64,000 nucleotides of DNA from an uncultured Desulfobacterales bacterium. Its GTDB lineage: Bacteria > Desulfobacterota > Desulfobacteria > Desulfobacterales > B30-G6. The number at the start of each line of letters is the position of its first letter. Position 1 is the first letter of the stretch. The notes below the pieces were generated by a model that was not told the origin of the DNA, searched no databases, and saw only the letters and a program-made list of their open reading frames with translations. Positions 10,199 through 21,652 of this stretch are shown piece after piece. Both the position numbers and the translations under genes were made by a program. Where the stretch lies: positions 78,162 to 142,161 of the forward strand of contig CAZWEO010000001.1 in assembly GCA_964633115.1 (NCBI GenBank), read 5' to 3'.

Positions 10199-11086
10199 TC
10201 AAGCATGCGTTATTTGCAACCATACGATGGAAGCCACCACCACCACGCCACCAAAGATCTGCAGCGGTGCCATCAACTCACCTAAAAAAATAGCCGCAAT
10301 GACCCCGGCGGCAATGGGCTCCAGCGTTGCAGTGATACTGGCATGGGTCGGTTTAATACGCTTAATGCCTTCAAAATAGAGGCCAAAGGGCACGATCGTT
10401 CCACCCAGACCAATAAACAGTATCCAAGACCACTGTTTCAGTGTATACGCCTGGCGAAAGGCTCCCATGGGCGGAAACAATACATGCCAAATCAGGGCCG
10501 CAAACAGCATGCCATATAGTACAACCGTCCAGGGTGTGTATTTTTTCATGCCATAGGCACTGAGAAGCGAATAGGCTGCAAAAGCCACCGCTGCCAAAAT
10601 TCCACCAATAATACCTACACGATTCAGCGCAAGCATCTCAAGATCATAGGCACCCACAACCAGATAGCTGCCCACCAGCGTCCCCACGATGGCAACCAGG
10701 GCTTTTGAGCCCATCCGTTGCTGTTGGATAAGAGCGGAATACAGAGCCACAAAGACAGGACCTGTATAATGTAGCAGTATGGCAGCGGCCACATTGATCT
10801 TGCTGATGGCAAATAAATAGAAAAACTGGGCTGCTCCGATTCCAAAAAATCCGAGGCAGATAAAATAGGGTAAATCGGTGAGTGATATTTTAAGCTGTCG
10901 AGGATATCTGATGGCCAGCCACACAATCAAGCCCACGAACGCCAATGTCGTTCTGAGTTGAATCAATTGGTAGGCTGTAATGCCTGCATTAAATAACGCT
11001 TTGGCACAGGCGCCCGAGATTGCAAATAAAATGGCGGCCAGCGCCACCAATAAATACCCTATCCGGTTTTCATTTTGGTTGTTCAT
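10199..11086 (-). CDS. EamA/DMT-family transporter
   Basis: 295 aa with about 10 hydrophobic helices in two repeated halves. Its start overlaps the stop of the upstream gene (ATGA). Confidence 0.85.
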   Translation of the reverse strand: MNNQNENRIGYLLVALAAILFAISGACAKALFNAGITAYQLIQLRTTLAFVGLIVWLAIRYPRQLKISLTDLPYFICLGFFGIGAAQFFYLFAISKINVAAAILLHYTGPVFVALYSALIQQQRMGSKALVAIVGTLVGSYLVVGAYDLEMLALNRVGIIGGILAAVAFAAYSLLSAYGMKKYTPWTVVLYGMLFAALIWHVLFPPMGAFRQAYTLKQWSWILFIGLGGTIVPFGLYFEGIKRIKPTHASITATLEPIAAGVIAAIFLGELMAPLQIFGGVVVVASIVWLQITHA

Positions 11087-11670
11087 GAGCTCTTTTTATA
11101 TAAATAGAAAAATTCCATCACTTTTTTGACATAGTTGCGGGTTTCCTCGATCGGTGGAATCGCTTTGTATTTTTCAACCATACTGGGGCCCGCATTATAG
11201 GCGGCCAGCGCCAAAGGCAGTTTACCATTAAAACGATCTATCATCGCTTTAAAATATCGGGCGCCCCCCATGATGTTTTCTTTGGGATCAAAAGGGTCGC
11301 TAATATATAACGATTTTAAATTATACGGCATTACCTGCATCAATCCCAGGGCGCCTTTGCGAGATACCGCTTTGGCATTAAAATTTGATTCAACTCTGAT
11401 TATGGCTTTTATCAATTGAAAAGATAAACCATACCGTAAGGATGCCTCCTTGATGATGGGATCATATACTTTGGTGGCTAGCGATGGTTTGGGACGTTCC
11501 TTGATATATAATTTGTACTGGGATGATGTGGGAGCATTGGTAAAATGGAGTACGCCTTCACTATCGATATACATGAATATATCGGCCAGGGCTGGCTCTG
11601 GTATCGCCGCTAAAAAACCAACAATCAAAACCAAAAGTAACCATCTGATTTTTTTAAATAAATAAACCAT
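11083..11670 (-). CDS. Lytic transglycosylase (SLT domain), exported
   Basis: 195 aa with a signal peptide. SLT motifs VESNFNAKAVSRKGALGLMQVMP and AAYNAGP. Confidence 0.8.
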   Translation of the reverse strand: MVYLFKKIRWLLLVLIVGFLAAIPEPALADIFMYIDSEGVLHFTNAPTSSQYKLYIKERPKPSLATKVYDPIIKEASLRYGLSFQLIKAIIRVESNFNAKAVSRKGALGLMQVMPYNLKSLYISDPFDPKENIMGGARYFKAMIDRFNGKLPLALAAYNAGPSMVEKYKAIPPIEETRNYVKKVMEFFYLYKKSS

Positions 11671-11677
11671 ATCCGAG

Positions 11678-14600
11678 TTAATCTGAGAATAAAGCCAACT
11701 GGGTTTGGCGATGACGCATGGTTTTATTGTCTGATGTCTGGTTCATCTGTTGTAGTTTCTGTTCCACATCGGTCACAAAGGGTGAAATGGATTGAATCCC
11801 AATCTTGCCATGGACTTTTCGTTTTTTTACATGGCTTAAATAGAGTTCTTGTTTGGCCCGGGTCATGGCCACGTAGAACAAGCGTCGTTCCTCCTGAATA
11901 TCCTGGTATTTATTTTCCTTGGGAATAAATGGAATCAAACCATTTTCACAACCTGTTATAAAAACTACAGGAAATTCCAGCCCTTTGGAGGCGTGCATGG
12001 TCATTAAACTGACCTTTTCCACGCGGGAATCGTACTGGTCTGTTTCTGTTTGCAATGCCAATCTGTTTAGAAATGTCGGTAGATCGCCATCAAAACCATA
12101 CGTTTTCTGTTTTAACTCTTCCAGTTGCTGCTGTTTTTGGGGATCATCTTTTACCGATATACCCAAAGACGTCTGTTCTAATATGGTGTTGATTGTTTTG
12201 CCAGGGTCTTTGGCAGAAATTTGGGATTGAACCGTTGCCAACGCCTTTGCCATGGCTGCCAATTTCGTTTGACTTCTTTTGGATAAAGTCGCAATGGGAT
12301 AGGTTAGCAGACTATTTAAGGCCTCATAAACATTTTGCCTATTCTGGTAAGCCCAAAATTTCCAGGAATCAAAGGATTTTTTACCGATGCCGGTTTGCAA
12401 GTAAGGTAAAATACGGTGGAGGTCACCATAGGATCCTTTACTTGAAAGCATTCTTAAAAATGATATCGTCGCCAGCACCCGGGGACAATATTGCCTATTT
12501 TTTTTAATGGCAACCTGAATCGGAATCCCAGCTGAAGATAGCATTTCAGCAATCACTTGGGATTGTTGGGCTGTTCGATATAGAATTACAAAATCTGAAA
12601 AGGATCGCTCCGTCTCTGATTCTGTTGCACTGGTTTTTCCAAAATCAATGGAGTAAAACCCCACCCCGCCAACCATCGACTCGATCATCTTGCCAATGGT
12701 TACAGCCTCATGTTTATCGTTTTTACAAGCGAGAATACCTACTTTTTGGGTCCCCTGATTTTCTGAATAAAGTTGCTGCCTCGGTATCCGGTCCGGTGTC
12801 TTTTGAATCATCTGCTGGGCAACATTCAAAATTGTTTGGGTCGAGCGGTAGTTTTGGTGCAACTGGATGCGCTCAGCGCCGGGATAATCTTCATGAAACC
12901 GATGAAAATAGTGCACATGTGATCCCCGGAACCCATAAATCGATTGATCTGGATCACCAATGACACATATTTCTGTCTCCGGCTGCGCCAGTTTTTTGAG
13001 CAAGCGATACTGTCCTGTATTGATATCCTGATATTCATCAACAAAAACATATGGATATTGCTTTTGAATGGCGGTGCGTACTGTAAGATCGTTTTCAAAA
13101 AGCCGGACCACATCACCGATCAAGTCCTCAAAATCCACTAATCCAAGGATTTTCAAAATCTGTTGATAGCATTGGTAGATAGCATTAACAGACTTTTTTT
13201 CAGCGGATGTAAGCTGGTCCAATTTGTCGGCATCCGCTTGGTACTCCTGTTTGATATAACGAATGGCATCCGCCAACTGTTCATGACGCAAGGACACATC
13301 CACACCAGAATCCCTTGCCATGGTTTTGGCGTCTTTGATGATTTCCAATTGCTCTCTGTCGTCAATTACGGCTGGGATTTGGTGTTGATCCCCGGTTTGT
13401 ATGCTTCTCAAACAAAAAGAATGAAACGTCGTCACCAACGGCAGTTCCATTTCTTGTGGTAATAACCGTCTCAGACGAACGAGCATTTCTCCGGCGGCCT
13501 GGTTCGTAAATGTCAGGCCCAGAATATTTGCGGCTGCAACTTGTCTTTTTTTTATTAGATGAGCGATTCGATGCGTCAGGGTAAAGGTTTTACCAGTGCC
13601 GGGTCCGGCCACAATAATATTTGCACCACCTGGATGGTGAACTACTTTGCTTTGGCTTTGATTCAGAACGAGCGGTCTGGTGGAATCTGTCTTTTCTAAA
13701 GACTGTTTTTGAGGTGCTGCACGTTTAGTTTTTGGAATCCTTTTTTGGCGTTTCTGAGGCACCATTGCTGCAGGTTGTACCGCGAACAATCTCTTTTGGG
13801 CACTCAATTTCTCCCTTTCCTGGCGAGAAAACAAACGGATGGTTCCAAATTGGCCATCAAACCCAGCATCGATATGAATTTTGCTTGCGCGAATGCGCTT
13901 AATCGCGTCGGCCAGTAAGGGAATATCTGTCTGATTTAATTTTTCGACCGGCAATTGATGCAATATATCAAACTCTGATCCTAAGCTCTGCAGGAGATCA
14001 TGATATGCCCGCTGAACTTTTTTGGAATTGGGTCCGACCCCCAATAATTCGGATAAGATGTCTATCAATGGAATGCTATGATAAAAAGGGTGGTTTTTTT
14101 CAGGCCGCTGTCCCTCGGGGCGATCGGCCAATTCTTCAACCCGATAAAGCACTCCCAGAGTCATGGGTTTCTGACACACCGGGCAGCGACCATCTTTTTG
14201 AATTGTTTCCCGGGGCCCAGAACGATAGTTGCATTTGCGATGTCCGTCAAAATGGTATTTACCTTCCTCGGGAAAAAACTCGATGGTGCCACAGAACTCT
14301 TGTGGGTCTCCGGTTTTAATAGCCTTCTTTATGGCGCCATAACTCAAATCGGTGTTAAAAATATTGGCCTCGCGGCCTACTTTTAGCGGAGAATGGGCAT
14401 CGGAGTTGGATATTAATGTGAGTCCATCCAGATTTTTAACCCGCCAATTCATTTGCGGATCCGACGAAAGACCTGTTTCTACAGCAAAAATATGGGGTGT
14501 CAGTTCCTCGAAGCAAGCTTCGATGGTATCAAATCCAGATTTGGAACCCAACATGGAAAACCAGGGTGTCCAGATATGCGCTGGCACTAAAAAATTTTTT

Positions 14601-15067
14601 GGGGATGTTTCCAGGCTTATTTCCAGTAGATGTTTGGCATCTAATCCCAAAATCGGCCTGCCATCCGAATGAATATTACCAATTTTATCAAGCGTCTGAT
14701 TGAATTTTTCTACCGACTCAAAAGAAGAAAAAAATACGAGATTATGATTCTTGCGGGTTTTATCCTGCTTTTTATAAATATTACTGATTTCGGTAACCAA
14801 TATAAAGCGCAAACGGCTCCGACAGATAGGTGGTATGTGTTGATCAACTGTCTTAGCGATATCCGGGTTTAATTTGAATAAACCCGGTTCTGCTGGAACC
14901 AATTTCTCCTTTATTTCTGAAAACCAAGCCGGATGGGTCACATCACCAGTACCCAAGACGGTGATGCCTTTTAGCTGGCCAGCAATATACAGATTTTCCA
15001 AATCAAGGTTCTTAGCTGTTGCTCTGGAATATTTTGAATGTACGTGAAAATCAGCAAAAAATTTCAT
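11678..15067 (-). CDS. Fusion protein: EndoQ-like PHP/Zn-ribbon nuclease (N-terminal ~430 aa) + UvrD/PcrA-type SF1 helicase (C-terminal ~650 aa)
   Basis: 1129 aa. N-terminal part: PHP metal motifs DFHVHSKYS, GTGD, PAHIWTPW, SNSDAHSP, then GKYHFDGHRKC...CPVCQKPMTLGVLYRVEELAD and GFDGQFGTIRL. Helicase part: GPGTGKT (I), TFTNQAAGEM (Ia), VFVDEYQD (II), GDPDQSIYGFRG (III), YRSTQ (IV), HASKGLEFPVVF (V), VAMTRAK (VI). Confidence 0.85.
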   Translation of the reverse strand: MKFFADFHVHSKYSRATAKNLDLENLYIAGQLKGITVLGTGDVTHPAWFSEIKEKLVPAEPGLFKLNPDIAKTVDQHIPPICRSRLRFILVTEISNIYKKQDKTRKNHNLVFFSSFESVEKFNQTLDKIGNIHSDGRPILGLDAKHLLEISLETSPKNFLVPAHIWTPWFSMLGSKSGFDTIEACFEELTPHIFAVETGLSSDPQMNWRVKNLDGLTLISNSDAHSPLKVGREANIFNTDLSYGAIKKAIKTGDPQEFCGTIEFFPEEGKYHFDGHRKCNYRSGPRETIQKDGRCPVCQKPMTLGVLYRVEELADRPEGQRPEKNHPFYHSIPLIDILSELLGVGPNSKKVQRAYHDLLQSLGSEFDILHQLPVEKLNQTDIPLLADAIKRIRASKIHIDAGFDGQFGTIRLFSRQEREKLSAQKRLFAVQPAAMVPQKRQKRIPKTKRAAPQKQSLEKTDSTRPLVLNQSQSKVVHHPGGANIIVAGPGTGKTFTLTHRIAHLIKKRQVAAANILGLTFTNQAAGEMLVRLRRLLPQEMELPLVTTFHSFCLRSIQTGDQHQIPAVIDDREQLEIIKDAKTMARDSGVDVSLRHEQLADAIRYIKQEYQADADKLDQLTSAEKKSVNAIYQCYQQILKILGLVDFEDLIGDVVRLFENDLTVRTAIQKQYPYVFVDEYQDINTGQYRLLKKLAQPETEICVIGDPDQSIYGFRGSHVHYFHRFHEDYPGAERIQLHQNYRSTQTILNVAQQMIQKTPDRIPRQQLYSENQGTQKVGILACKNDKHEAVTIGKMIESMVGGVGFYSIDFGKTSATESETERSFSDFVILYRTAQQSQVIAEMLSSAGIPIQVAIKKNRQYCPRVLATISFLRMLSSKGSYGDLHRILPYLQTGIGKKSFDSWKFWAYQNRQNVYEALNSLLTYPIATLSKRSQTKLAAMAKALATVQSQISAKDPGKTINTILEQTSLGISVKDDPQKQQQLEELKQKTYGFDGDLPTFLNRLALQTETDQYDSRVEKVSLMTMHASKGLEFPVVFITGCENGLIPFIPKENKYQDIQEERRLFYVAMTRAKQELYLSHVKKRKVHGKIGIQSISPFVTDVEQKLQQMNQTSDNKTMRHRQTQLALFSD

Positions 15068-15342
15068 CTTGTTTCGCTTGGCTATTCCAGCTATATGTAT
15101 ATAATAGTTTTATATTTATACACAATATGTTGTATTGGGTATTGATAAATTGTTCATAATTATCTATTTATGAACAATATTGAAACAGGTGTTAAAAACA
15201 GCCTTGTTTTAGACAGCCTATCAAGCCGTTATTGTCAAAGGATATTAACTAAAATAATAATAATATTAATTAATTAAGAACTTATTATATTTATCAACAA
15301 GCCTTATTATTACTTATTCTTATATTAAAGTAGGAAATACTT
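15068..15342. other. Candidate oriC / dnaN upstream region (AT-rich, DnaA-box-like motifs)
   Basis: 275 bp non-coding. DnaA-box-like 9-mers compared with TTATCCACA: TTATACACA at 15116..15124, TTATCAACA at 15291..15299, TTATGAACA at 15168..15176 with its inverted copy at 15151..15159, and TTATCAATA on the minus strand at 15140..15148. A very AT-rich stretch at 15241..15340 is a possible unwinding element. Confidence 0.45.
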
Positions 15343-18893
<3,551 letters not shown>

Positions 18894-18896
18894 AAT

Positions 18897-18932
18897 AAAA
18901 AAGTGATTTCGCTCAGGCAAAATCACTTTTTT
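18897..18932. terminator. Bidirectional intrinsic terminator between gyrB and the KAS III-like gene
   Basis: 13-bp arms AAAAAAGTGATTT / AAATCACTTTTTT around a 10-nt loop, with T-runs on both strands. The second arm overlaps the last codons of the minus-strand gene. Confidence 0.6.
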
Positions 18933-20458
18933 ATTTGGAGGAAGGAACTTCGGGTCATGCCGGCGCCTACAGAATCGTTTAGGATCACTTTGGCGGAACG
19001 CAATTTTGCCAGATTTTGATTAATGCGAAATCCTTGAATATTGTCAGCCGTAAGTTTTTTACCTTCCAAATCATAGGGTAGGCGTTGCATACAAACCACC
19101 GAACAATTGCCACGCGTGTGGATGTTGGTAATCATTTTATTGGACAGATAATCAACCACCTCCTTTTTCAAACCCGGTTGGCCATTGTCCAGGACTTTTT
19201 CGAGCATCATGGGTATCATGGCAAAATTGGCCTGGTGTTCAATCAGTAAATCAAGATCATAAACACTGAGTTGGTTTTGTTGCATCAGGTCGCTGAGATG
19301 TTCTTTGGCTCCACGTGTGGCATACAGGAAAACACCCTTTCCATTCATATCGCCAAAGACATCGTCTTCGGTGGGAACCGCCTGAATATAGTCCGCAAAA
19401 CAGCCATGGGTCCGCGTGTGCGTGTCCACAATCCCGCGGCGGGGTCTTTCAAAAGTAAAACCAGAACCGCGTTGAACGCTAATGTCGGCTGTTAAATCTT
19501 TTCGCAAATAGACACTGACGATGGAACGAAACTTACCGGATTGAATGTAAGCGCGGGCACAGTCATCGACCAGCTGGGGGGATTTGGACAGTGTCATGAT
19601 ATCATAGGCAAAGGCATCAATACGGCGATTATAAAAAGCCAGGTCGCTTTTAAACCCATTGGAGCGGCGGTTACCGAAATTTTCCGGAAACATAAGAACC
19701 GCCAATTCATGCTGCAATCTGGCGGCTGTGGCTGGTACGCGGAAATGCAGTTTGCCAAGCTGATTGTCGATGATAATGCCGTCGATTTTTTGATCACCAT
19801 TTATATCGAAAATCGCTTGCGCAAGCTCGGGGATAAAATCAGAAGCTAAGGAACATTGTGATTTTTCGGTCTGAATCTGGCCGTTGCGAGGGACGCAGGT
19901 GGCAGTTGTTTCGAATCCGGTTGCCAAGGCATCGTCACCAAAAATGATATTCGACGTGTCGAGCGGCACAAAGGCCTTGGCCCGATGAATATTTTCAGCC
20001 CCTACCACGACGGATACGTCACCTTGTTTTAAATAACCGGACAAAGTTAGCATAAATAGCAGTTCCACACTGACATTGTATCCTGGGCAGCCGGCATAAA
20101 GATCCAGAGCAATTGCTTCTGGACATTGGTTCTTAATAATTTTAAATGGATAGCGAACCAGTGGTCCAGGATCATATTTATCGTCGCCCACATTGGTTGC
20201 CCCGATAACTACTTTTATTCTTTTTGGTTCGATCTTTGCTGTGTCCAGCAGGTTTTGAATCGCGATGGTTCCGATGCGAACATCGTCCGGCGCCACCATC
20301 CGCGTGCGGATGCCAATCCGCTCCTCGATGGTCTTTAAATTGACCGGAATCTCTCCTTTGAAGAGCATGCCCTTATTTTCATATATGGTATTATCGGTCA
20401 GGGTACCACCATTCCAGGCGCCATATGCTTTAATTTCGAGAACGGATCCTTGGATCAC
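18923..20458 (-). CDS. KAS III (FabH)-like thiolase-fold condensing enzyme with large internal insertion
   Basis: 511 aa with GTG start. Cys-His-Asn triad context: YAGCPGYN (Cys124), IEHQANFAM (His408), TRGNCSV (Asn451). About 180 extra residues lie between the FGDDA block and the MNGKGVF block. Confidence 0.7.
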   Translation of the reverse strand: MIQGSVLEIKAYGAWNGGTLTDNTIYENKGMLFKGEIPVNLKTIEERIGIRTRMVAPDDVRIGTIAIQNLLDTAKIEPKRIKVVIGATNVGDDKYDPGPLVRYPFKIIKNQCPEAIALDLYAGCPGYNVSVELLFMLTLSGYLKQGDVSVVVGAENIHRAKAFVPLDTSNIIFGDDALATGFETTATCVPRNGQIQTEKSQCSLASDFIPELAQAIFDINGDQKIDGIIIDNQLGKLHFRVPATAARLQHELAVLMFPENFGNRRSNGFKSDLAFYNRRIDAFAYDIMTLSKSPQLVDDCARAYIQSGKFRSIVSVYLRKDLTADISVQRGSGFTFERPRRGIVDTHTRTHGCFADYIQAVPTEDDVFGDMNGKGVFLYATRGAKEHLSDLMQQNQLSVYDLDLLIEHQANFAMIPMMLEKVLDNGQPGLKKEVVDYLSNKMITNIHTRGNCSVVCMQRLPYDLEGKKLTADNIQGFRINQNLAKLRSAKVILNDSVGAGMTRSSFLQIKK

Positions 20459-20857
20459 TGTAAGCTCCAGATTGTCAGTATTTATATTTGAATTCCTTGC
20501 TGCAACACGACTTGAGCTCGGCTAAAGATTTGCTGACGGAATATGGATTTTTAATCTTTCGTATAAAAGCGACGTAGTCGCGCTCCATAAAATCGTGGGA
20601 CACGATTTTATTTTCTAAATTAATCGGGCCATTATCGTAAAAAAACCTATAACAGAAGTTTTTCGCTTTTCAATAGATGCAAGTGAGTATTTTGTACTTG
20701 ATTCAAAACTAGACAAATGTGATTAATAAGCAAATCAGCCAAAACTGGGCATAAAACGGCAATGTAAAAGTTTTGTAAAATCAAATCGCCTGGCGTTTTG
20801 ATTTATAGTAGCCTAGCCGCATTATTCTCTATTTGATTAGTTTAAATGAGGCGCTCA

Positions 20858-21652
20858 ATGAACATTCACACGATCACAGCAAGGGATTTGCCCGATTTAT
20901 GGTTTCAGGCAGTCCATGATATTTTAGACCATGGCAAACGGTTTAACATCGATAGAGGATCATATGCCGGGCAAACCCGATTGGAGTATGACTATTTTTT
21001 TGGTCAGGTCCTGCATCCATATAGCGAACCACTCCTGCCGGACATTCCACCGTCTTGCGGCATTCCTAACCCGGTTGAGGAGGCCTATATCTATGGTGGC
21101 GATGGATATGAACGCTCCTATATCGAGTATCTCATGACCGGTCATAAAGAACCAGGGGAATCCTATACCTATGGCGAACGTTTGACGCGAACGCCCATAA
21201 CCCGTAATAAATTGGAATGGTGGCAAAGCGGCAACGAGGAGATCATTGATAAAAAGGCAGTCGATGGCAAAATCGTATTTGAGGAAAATGGCACCCTGTA
21301 TTTAAATCAAATTGAGTGGATCATTGACACCTATAAAAAGTATGGCTACCGCAACAATCAGATGGTCCTGCAAATTGCGCACCCGTCCGATATGACTTTG
21401 ATTGACCCACCCTGCCTAAGGTCCATCGATACCCGTGTACAGGGCGACCAACTTAATTTCTTTGTTTATTTCCGATCTTGGGATCTGTGGGGCGGCTTAC
21501 CGGCCAACCTTGCCGGCATCCAAAATTTAAAGAGTTATATGGCAGCCGAAATCGGGGTAAAAGATGGTCAAATGGTGGTGGAAAGCAAGGGATTGCATTT
21601 ATACGGCTATGCTGAAGATTTGGCCAAGCTACGCTGTTTGCGAGAGGATTAG
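20858..21652 (+). CDS. Thymidylate synthase (ThyA)-fold protein, archaeal-like divergent type
   Basis: The ORF track starts at 20846. The ATG at 20858 has a GAGG RBS 6 nt upstream. ThyA-fold blocks: IDPPCLRSID (catalytic Cys context), FRSWDLWGGLPANL (compare QRSxD..G.PFN), KGLHLYGY. Substrate not assignable. Confidence 0.6.
   Translation: MNIHTITARDLPDLWFQAVHDILDHGKRFNIDRGSYAGQTRLEYDYFFGQVLHPYSEPLLPDIPPSCGIPNPVEEAYIYGGDGYERSYIEYLMTGHKEPGESYTYGERLTRTPITRNKLEWWQSGNEEIIDKKAVDGKIVFEENGTLYLNQIEWIIDTYKKYGYRNNQMVLQIAHPSDMTLIDPPCLRSIDTRVQGDQLNFFVYFRSWDLWGGLPANLAGIQNLKSYMAAEIGVKDGQMVVESKGLHLYGYAEDLAKLRCLRED

Follow-up and report, generated by a model that had tools for sequence, protein, structure and literature searches.

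The EndoQ enzymes of archaea and of Bacillus pumilus are known from experiment to incise DNA on the 5′ side of deoxyuridine (dU), deoxyinosine (dI), deoxyxanthosine (dX) or abasic (AP) sites, and PCNA binds archaeal EndoQ at a C-terminal PCNA-interacting peptide (PIP) box and stimulates the enzyme (PMC4858679). The steps that follow incision by EndoQ (and EndoV) have been described as unclear, and a helicase step was already postulated for archaea in 2015 (PMC4357722, Fig. 10 legend). Bacterial EndoQ homologs were noted in Bacillus and Desulfovibrio by Shiraishi et al. 2015, and Shiraishi et al. 2016 (Sci Rep 6:25532) report a beta-clamp-binding consensus at the C-termini of bacterial homologs. 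In its Suppl. Fig. S1, short forms of 405-464 aa stand beside long forms of ~1000-1240 aa, with the motif at ~941-1244; the long forms come from Desulfobacter, Desulfobacterium, Geobacter metallireducens, Desulfovibrio, Sorangium, Saccharopolyspora, Caldilinea and Rhodothermus, among them the proteins of Desulfobacterium autotrophicum (WP_015906045, 1156 aa), Desulfobacter curvatus (1088 aa), G. metallireducens (1075 aa), Sorangium cellulosum (1089 aa) and Caldilinea aerophila (1134 aa). A classification of EndoQ into three families “based on the domain organization”, two of them bacterial, is mentioned in Miyazono et al. 2018 (PMC5961232). Here, we describe a bacterial gene that joins a predicted EndoQ nuclease to a UvrD/PcrA-type helicase. 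It lies in a stretch of 64,000 nucleotides, hereafter the window, from an uncultured Desulfobacterales bacterium (assembly GCA_964633115.1, contig CAZWEO010000001.1, positions 78,162 to 142,161 of the forward strand).

The gene is a single open reading frame (ORF) that starts with ATG and runs without interruption through 1129 codons. A previous reading made from the letters alone (the sequence-only reading) had proposed one polypeptide fusing an EndoQ-like nuclease to a UvrD/PcrA helicase, and this proposal held, since the ORF is intact and both modules are matched over their full length. The motifs quoted at that time are all present at the expected places (DFHVH at residue 6, PAHIWTPW at 162, SNSDAHSP at 220, GHRKC at 275, CPVCQ at 295, GFDGQFG at 402, GPGTGKT at 488 and DEYQD at 677). 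Independent metagenomes yielded 23 contigs that encode the identical fusion protein, and the best 120 database homologs are 1120-1175 aa long with a coverage of 98-100%, the one exception being a partial fragment of 790 aa. These identical ORFs and full-length homologs show that the fusion is real and not a merged gene pair. Residue invariance was judged on an alignment of 119 full-length homologs. Taken together, the sequence evidence supports a two-module DNA-repair enzyme composed of an EndoQ nuclease and a UvrD/PcrA-type helicase.

In a search against solved structures, residues 5-414 aligned end to end with EndoQ of Pyrococcus furiosus (PfuEndoQ; 5zb8/7k30, residues 5-384) with an E-value of 2e-47 and ~33% identity across its whole length. 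For residues 1-465, an AlphaFold model had a predicted local distance difference test score (pLDDT) of 86 and a predicted template modelling score (pTM) of 0.85, and its top four Foldseek matches were all PfuEndoQ (5zb8/7k30; E 6e-36 to 8e-34, 423-431 aligned columns, template modelling (TM) score 0.88-0.90 normalised to the target). All three EndoQ domains, the PHP barrel, the domain that binds Zn and the helical domain at the C-terminus, are matched in the N-terminal part of the fusion. Generic PHP proteins came next at E 1e-6, 30 orders of magnitude weaker and covering the barrel alone, so that the module does not fit generic PHP phosphoesterases better than EndoQ.

The functional residues known from published work on EndoQ point the same way. 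The metal ligands H8, H10, E93, H108, H164, D223 and H225, which compare with H8, H10, E76, H84, H139, D193 (and H195) of PfuEndoQ, are invariant in 119/119 homologs. The predicted lesion pocket (H164, T167, E197, T198, G199, L200, S201, N221 and D223) is likewise invariant, as are W169 (Pfu W144) and K349 (Pfu K320). Its counterparts in PfuEndoQ are H139, T142, E167, L168, G169, L170, S171, N191 and D193, with functional roles taken from PMC5961232 and PMC8307549; the sole difference is T198 in place of L168, a position for which a main-chain contribution was reported (PMC5961232). The structural comparison with the Pyrococcus enzyme, which the sequence-only reading had put forward as a check together with the pocket residues, gave a close fold, and the pocket is conserved.

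The family models gave a less uniform picture. Pfam PHP (PF02811), which had been named as a model for this region, found no match on residues 1-465 even at E <= 10, and PHP_C matched only weakly (E 0.021). TIGR00375, also named, did match, but only over residues 99-410 and with 158.7 bits against a curated cut-off of 326.6 bits. Neither outcome is informative on the identity of the module. Because PF02811 is silent and TIGR00375 stays under its cut-off, the EndoQ assignment rests on the sequence and fold matches to solved structures; Pfam PF27218 (MJ0043_C) also matches the module in precomputed annotation. The segment previously described as Zn-ribbon-like does hold a predicted four-ligand site, H-x2-C...C-x2-C, with every position filled, but the ligand set is H-C-C-C and not the C4 of archaea, the first Cys being replaced by His. 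This His was found in 146/150 cross-phylum representatives, while the short EndoQ of Bacillales keeps Cys (C4), and it is a marker of the clade. As a separate observation, the bacterial clade carries a 17-residue insertion relative to PfuEndoQ at residues ~67-83 (within ORF residues 66-106, about 14750-14872 of the window), and its basic beta-hairpin next to the catalytic Glu (E93-ISNIYKK-100 ... R105-K106) is extended and invariant and may provide an extra DNA contact.

The EndoQ module is followed by the basic, low-complexity linker described in the sequence-only reading. It is predicted to be disordered (pLDDT < 50 at residues 429-465 in the model of residues 1-465, and at 423-465 in the full-length model), and its length varies between loci from about 50 to 160 aa. 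The remainder is a complete superfamily 1A (SF1A) helicase core, as had been claimed. Residues 468-1105 align with PcrA (1pjr; E 1e-86, 294 bits), with UvrD1, UvrD and Rep also matched; the Pfam domains UvrD-helicase (residues 468-729, 235 bits against a cut-off of 23) and UvrD_C (residues 734-1081, 165 bits against 25.6) score far above threshold. Motifs Q (Q472), I (AGPGTGKT, 487-494), Ia (TFTNQAA, 519-525), II (DEYQD, 677-681), III (GDPDQSIYGFRG, 704-715), IV (NYRS, 739-742), V (HASKGLEF, 1025-1032) and VI (EERRLFYVAMTRA, 1059-1071) are all present and invariant across homologs. Among the NCBIfam equivalog models the best score was that of PcrA, yet it was well below its cut-off (440 vs 911 bits), as were Rep (370 vs 951) and UvrD (340 vs 1144), which places the helicase in a separate SF1A subfamily. 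The alignment with PcrA stops at PcrA residue 645/724 and query residue 1105/1129, and since just 24 residues, predicted to be disordered, follow the core, the C-terminal domain of PcrA/UvrD (~80 aa) is missing. In PcrA and UvrD this domain contacts RNA polymerase.

Two predicted clamp-binding motifs, both missed by the sequence-only reading, were found in the fusion. The protein ends in ...RQTQLALFSD, within a basic tail (residues 1107-1129) predicted to be disordered in the full-length model, and this end matches the bacterial beta-clamp-binding consensus QL(S/D)LF (PMC9690074). Among close homologs, 118/119 have a Q[LIVM]x[LIVM]F motif within their final 15 residues, and in 98 of them it forms the very C-terminus. 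Across phyla, 54 of the 64 complete C-termini carry the motif, which takes the form QLxLL in actinomycetes. As a negative control, none of 437 unrelated ORFs from the same DNA had a C-terminal Q[LIVM]x[LIVM]F. The second motif lies at the boundary between the EndoQ module and the linker; the peptides around the two motifs are RHRQTQLALFSD and SAQKRLFAVQP. Q424, L427 and F428 are invariant in close homologs, and QxxLF stands exactly 15 residues past the GFDGQFG (GYDG) block in 110/119 of them, with looser conservation among cross-phylum long forms (68/113). This position is also the endpoint of the standalone short EndoQs of the clade. Judged from these sequences, the fusion looks like an EndoQ with a clamp motif joined to a helicase with a clamp motif. 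Since archaeal EndoQ binds PCNA by a C-terminal PIP box, clamp recruitment appears to be ancestral to the EndoQ family.

The two modules are linked well beyond this lineage. In a scan of one genome per species, at least 549 genomes carried a relative of the EndoQ module, and the best 80 of these were examined. In this set the EndoQ module is 54-69% identical to that of the window, and about ten phyla are covered: the hosts include Desulfobacterales, Myxococcota (Sorangium), Actinomycetes (Saccharopolyspora, Actinopolyspora, Micromonospora, Kutzneria), Planctomycetota, Chloroflexota, Acidobacteriota, Binatia, Fibrobacterota, Proteobacteria, Nitrospirota and others. The helicase is fused in frame at 64 of the 80 species-level loci and lies directly downstream but out of frame at nine, while five contigs are too short to judge. 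Three of the nine (L021, L039 and L048) are probable assembly frameshifts of fused genes. The other six are genuine split genes, found in Planctomycetales (L067, L068 and L070), a Myxococcales metagenome-assembled genome (MAG; L037), Ca. Aceula lacicola (L046) and an Omnitrophota MAG (L040). The EndoQ genes at the split loci encode ~430 aa and each ends in QxxLF (6/6), and the helicase genes have a terminal QLxLF of their own wherever the C-terminus lies on the contig (all except L040). The fusion at 64 loci, together with the six further loci at which the modules are adjacent separate genes, speaks for a functional coupling of the two modules. No helicase was found within 2.2-4.5 kb downstream at the remaining two loci (L032 and L085), and neither has a clamp motif; L032 is a Gammaproteobacteria MAG and L085 a Gemmatimonadetes MAG, with EndoQ proteins of 418 and ~410 aa that end in ...IKLFRKNELK and ...VRVFEEGEI.

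In a library of representatives at 50% identity, 1,046 clusters matched the EndoQ module (E <= 1e-30); of the best 150, the majority are 1000-1370 aa long. The module had no match in 50,697 phage genomes (INPHARED) or in 2.9 M viral contigs (IMG/VR). The single match among plasmid records was a 394-aa “endonuclease Q family protein”, 27% identical, on a 733-kb Brevibacillus replicon; it sits in a NUDIX-EndoQ-spoIIM-fur-xerD context with neither a nearby helicase nor a clamp motif. This distribution supports a housekeeping rather than a mobile character. The published picture of EndoQ in “a few bacterial genera” is out of date, given how common the helicase-linked form is in Desulfobacterota, Myxococcota, Actinomycetota, Planctomycetota, Chloroflexota, Acidobacteriota and others.

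Both the EndoQ and the SF1A motor of the protein are thus intact; a flexible linker joins them, two clamp-type motifs are present, and the linkage of the modules is conserved. We consider it fairly probable that it acts as a clamp-recruited enzyme that nicks and then unwinds DNA in a glycosylase-independent repair of uracil, hypoxanthine and abasic sites. On this model, the beta clamp (DnaN) that replication or repair synthesis has left behind on DNA would recruit the protein through its QLxLF tail, much as PCNA recruits and stimulates archaeal EndoQ through the C-terminal PIP box. The EndoQ module would flip out uracil, hypoxanthine, xanthine or an abasic sugar and cut the phosphodiester bond immediately 5′ of the lesion, leaving a 3′-OH and a lesion-bearing end with a 5′-phosphate. 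The tethered helicase would load at this nick and, translocating 3′ to 5′ on the intact strand, peel off the 5′ end that bears the lesion; a polymerase could then resynthesise from the 3′-OH, with a flap nuclease or exonuclease and a ligase completing the repair. Such a route would be a nucleotide-incision or alternative-excision pathway independent of glycosylases, with incision and strand displacement hard-wired in one protein. UvrD acts in a parallel manner at the nicks made by UvrC in nucleotide excision repair and by MutH in mismatch repair, and the unwinding agrees with the helicase step drawn as a hypothesis for archaeal EndoQ/EndoV repair (PMC4357722). The sequence-only reading had spoken of a self-contained repair machine. 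The term “self-contained” is an overstatement: going by its conserved clamp motifs the protein would depend on the beta clamp, and repair would still call for a polymerase, for a flap nuclease or exonuclease and for a ligase.

Several points weigh against the nick-then-unwind model. The TIGR00375 model and the NCBIfam models of PcrA, UvrD and Rep all score under their curated cut-offs, and two of the 80 loci have neither a helicase within 2.2-4.5 kb nor a clamp motif. The helicase is 31-42% identical across phyla as against 54-69% for the EndoQ module, and this much faster evolution could reflect a role that is accessory or more loosely tied. In the full-length AlphaFold model (pTM 0.52) there is no confident geometry between the modules, so that a hand-off of the nick has no structural support. 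The ortholog in Desulfonema magnum lies among small ORFs of toxin-antitoxin, HNH and Vsr type, a variable-region context. Finally, the substrate range of the long forms, the polarity of the helicase and the binding to the clamp are all read across from homologs.

As genomic evidence for unwinding from the nick as the next step, the EndoQ-UvrD linkage, conserved across many phyla, occasionally split and with a clamp motif in both modules, is strong. A wider proposal, which we put forward only tentatively, is that the whole helicase-linked clade constitutes a widespread, clamp-dependent nick-and-unwind pathway for deaminated and abasic bases that prefers clamp-marked (newly replicated) DNA. With its two QxxLF motifs, one per module, a single polypeptide would then be able to occupy both pockets of the beta-clamp dimer at once or to pass from nuclease to helicase. 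The clade would on this view be a bacterial counterpart of the PCNA-EndoQ “repairsome” and would provide the downstream step that has long been missing from repair begun by EndoQ. Culturable, genetically tractable hosts of the helicase-linked form include Geobacter, Desulfovibrio, Sorangium and Saccharopolyspora.

Coordinates of the fusion, its parts and its neighbours are given in Table 1.

Table 1. The EndoQ-UvrD fusion gene, its predicted domains and motifs, and two neighbouring genes (positions in the window).
Feature	Position	Strand	Basis
EndoQ-UvrD fusion, complete ORF (1129 aa + stop)	11678..15067	-	ORF call, full-length homologs, 23 contigs with the identical protein
EndoQ PHP nuclease domain, residues ~1-265	14273..15067	-	Residue mapping to PfuEndoQ, predicted fold
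EndoQ Zn-binding domain, residues ~266-332, predicted ligands H276/C279/C295/C298	14072..14272	-	Residue mapping
EndoQ C-terminal helical domain, residues ~333-414, including K349 and GFDGQFG beta-hairpin block	13826..14071	-	PfuEndoQ alignment, predicted fold, PF27218
Internal clamp-binding-like motif, Q424-K-R-L-F428	13784..13798	-	Conservation at the EndoQ/linker boundary
Basic low-complexity linker, residues 429-465	13673..13783	-	Predicted disordered
UvrD/PcrA-type SF1A helicase core, residues 466-1105	11753..13672	-	Pfam, NCBIfam, PcrA alignment, invariant motifs
C-terminal beta-clamp-binding motif (predicted), Q1123-L-A-L-F1127	11687..11701	-	Conservation, consensus QL(S/D)LF
SLT-domain lytic transglycosylase gene	11083..11670	-	Pfam SLT; 8 nt past the fusion stop codon
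dnaN (beta sliding clamp, predicted docking partner)	15343..16461	+	DNA_pol3_beta domains; divergent from the fusion

The fusion gene diverges from dnaN-gyrB across an AT-rich spacer of 275 bp (15068-15342). Downstream lie the SLT gene, after 8 nt, and then a gene for an EamA transporter; a Usp gene is also among the neighbours. The dnaN gene is 0.3-3.3 kb upstream at ten related loci (L007-L010 and L012-L017), and the arrangement of dnaN upstream and SLT downstream recurs in other Desulfobacterales species but neither in other phyla nor in Desulfonema magnum. The operon with SLT and EamA that had been proposed does exist here as a gene order, but SLT is kept within Desulfobacterales only and the EamA adjacency is not conserved, so that there is no general functional operon; SLT is probably lineage synteny and not part of the system. 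The dnaN adjacency is lineage synteny as well, worth noting as the gene of the predicted docking partner lies next door. The gene had also been said to abut a candidate replication origin. The cumulative GC-skew minimum does fall nearby, at about 12-14 kb of the window, but matches to the DnaA box are not enriched in the window (24 vs 17.4 expected, with 24 reached in 8/100 shuffles), and the spacer has just two boxes with one mismatch (15116 and 15291). The gyrB gene follows dnaN directly, without recF, and no dnaA is adjacent. An origin at this place is thus weakly supported.

Two further ORFs were observed. The first (18923-20458, minus strand, 511 aa) lies beside gyrB and is conserved as a 523-aa ORF at the locus of a 60%-identical relative (L007). 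Neither has a Pfam match (E <= 1e-4 for the 511-aa ORF), and by eye the Cys/His/Asn blocks of the 511-aa ORF (AGCPGY, EHQAN, GNCS) are reminiscent of FabH-like condensing enzymes. The second (20846-21652, plus strand, 268 aa), about 6 kb from the fusion gene, is thymidylate-synthase-like, with PF00303 matching residues 146-261 only (E 7e-11). Its placement is conserved in the same relative and may be coincidental, although the making of thymidylate has a bearing on dUTP and on uracil in DNA.

The arrangement near dnaN bears on the first of the alternatives to the nick-then-unwind model. Rep, PcrA and UvrD family members are known accessory replicative helicases, and a Rep/PcrA-like translocase tethered to the clamp could carry EndoQ at or behind replication forks, serving as a motor for lesion search or roadblock clearance while other enzymes finish the excision. 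The two clamp-binding-type motifs would suit such scanning, as would the divergent dnaN-gyrB adjacency near the GC-skew minimum in Desulfobacterales and the finding that EndoQ also cuts single-stranded DNA (PMC6202378). Nevertheless, we consider it unlikely: the dnaN synteny is confined to Desulfobacterales, and the helicase lacks the C-terminal domain of PcrA/UvrD, with 24 residues after the core where PcrA has about 80. The sequence data in themselves do not separate scanning from unwinding after the nick.

A generic nuclease-helicase for the processing of DNA ends or breaks, with the PHP domain acting not as a lesion-specific nickase but as an exonuclease or 3′-phosphoesterase on ends that the helicase lays bare, in the manner of AddA/RecB or of PHP proofreading, is quite improbable. 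PHP domains elsewhere are indeed exonucleases or phosphoesterases (PMC3820547), and the well-known UvrD-family helicase-nuclease fusions AddA, RecB and AdnB do match the helicase part. The N-terminal module, however, is not a bare PHP domain, as it has the Zn-binding and helical DNA-clamping domains specific to EndoQ. Its invariant base pocket (H164, G199, L200, S201 and others) has as its only known role the reading of flipped-out uracil or hypoxanthine, and the structures of generic PHP proteins fit it far worse, as given above.

Defence against phages or plasmids, in which the nuclease-helicase would destroy invading DNA containing uracil or other non-canonical bases, has in our judgement a very small chance of being the correct explanation. 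An antiviral role for bacterial EndoQ was suggested in a review (PMC8307549) and has been speculated on for Bacillus EndoQ, and the PADLOC models for GajB and the DRT-helicase match the helicase part. These matches cover the generic UvrD core only and score lower than PcrA (294 vs 440 bits), and no GajA or other partner lies near the gene, whose neighbours are dnaN, gyrB, SLT, EamA and Usp. The absence from phages and viral contigs and the near absence from plasmids, the conserved housekeeping neighbours in Desulfobacterales and the conserved beta-clamp motifs all point to host DNA transactions instead, and we rejected defence as the principal explanation. The Desulfonema magnum copy does lie in a setting of the kind that defence would predict. 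This 50%-identical ortholog, in a complete genome (L005; CP061800, 2333726-2349163), is not beside dnaN, and its neighbours are many small ORFs, including Vsr, HicB-like, BrnT, HNH and Tox-ART-HYD1, in what looks like a variable or defence-island neighbourhood. The weakest alternative, an assembly or sequencing frameshift that joined two genes, could appeal to the minority of loci with separate genes but is practically excluded by the 23 contigs with the identical ORF, the 64 species-level genomes fused in frame and the 119 full-length homologs.

Database names for the homologs are “UvrD-helicase domain-containing protein” or “TIGR00375 family”. The sequence-only reading had left open whether the fusion had been studied: its long homologs were catalogued in 2016, but no biochemical work was found. 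In the literature covered, which does not include the defining 2017 classification paper, we found no paper that assays or explicitly discusses an EndoQ-UvrD fusion, and none that describes the second, internal clamp motif, split genes with their own motifs, the His zinc ligand or the wider spread. These four features are modest additions.

Among known systems, archaeal EndoQ (P. furiosus PF1551; PDB 5ZB8, 7K30-33) shares with the fusion the three domains, the catalytic and pocket residues and a motif for clamp docking where the EndoQ unit ends. It stands alone, however, as a protein of ~420 aa that has a C4 zinc finger and docks on PCNA by a PIP box, whereas the fusion has His as the first Zn ligand, motifs of the bacterial beta-clamp type and an appended helicase of 640 aa. 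The short EndoQ of Bacillales (active in B. pumilus; Brevibacillus WP_031414379) is also bacterial, and its 5′ incision at uracil, hypoxanthine and AP sites is experimentally known; with 27% identity to the window module, a C4 finger and neither a terminal clamp motif nor a helicase neighbour, it belongs to a different bacterial clade. The helicase shares the full four-subdomain core and all motifs with PcrA, UvrD and Rep (PDB 1PJR, 2IS1, 9DCI) but lacks their C-terminal domain of ~80 aa and carries instead a nuclease at the N-terminus and a clamp motif at the C-terminus. AddA, RecB and AdnB likewise join a UvrD-family motor covalently to a nuclease in a single polypeptide, but theirs is a C-terminal PD-(D/E)XK nuclease used in the processing of double-strand ends, while that of the fusion is N-terminal, of PHP/EndoQ type and predicted to be lesion-specific. 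Gabija (GajA/GajB) has an adjacent GajA and a defence or mobile location, neither of which applies to the window fusion. The nearest relatives of all are the long bacterial EndoQ homologs of the 2016 survey, which agree with the window protein in length class, in the taxa surveyed and in the C-terminal QLxLF motif; the part of that paper covered here calls them EndoQ homologs only and does not mention a helicase. The protein encoded in the window almost certainly belongs to these homologs, as one more representative of a family already in print and annotated in databases. The fusion would not surprise specialists on EndoQ, but it opens a tractable way into the steps that come after EndoQ has cut.

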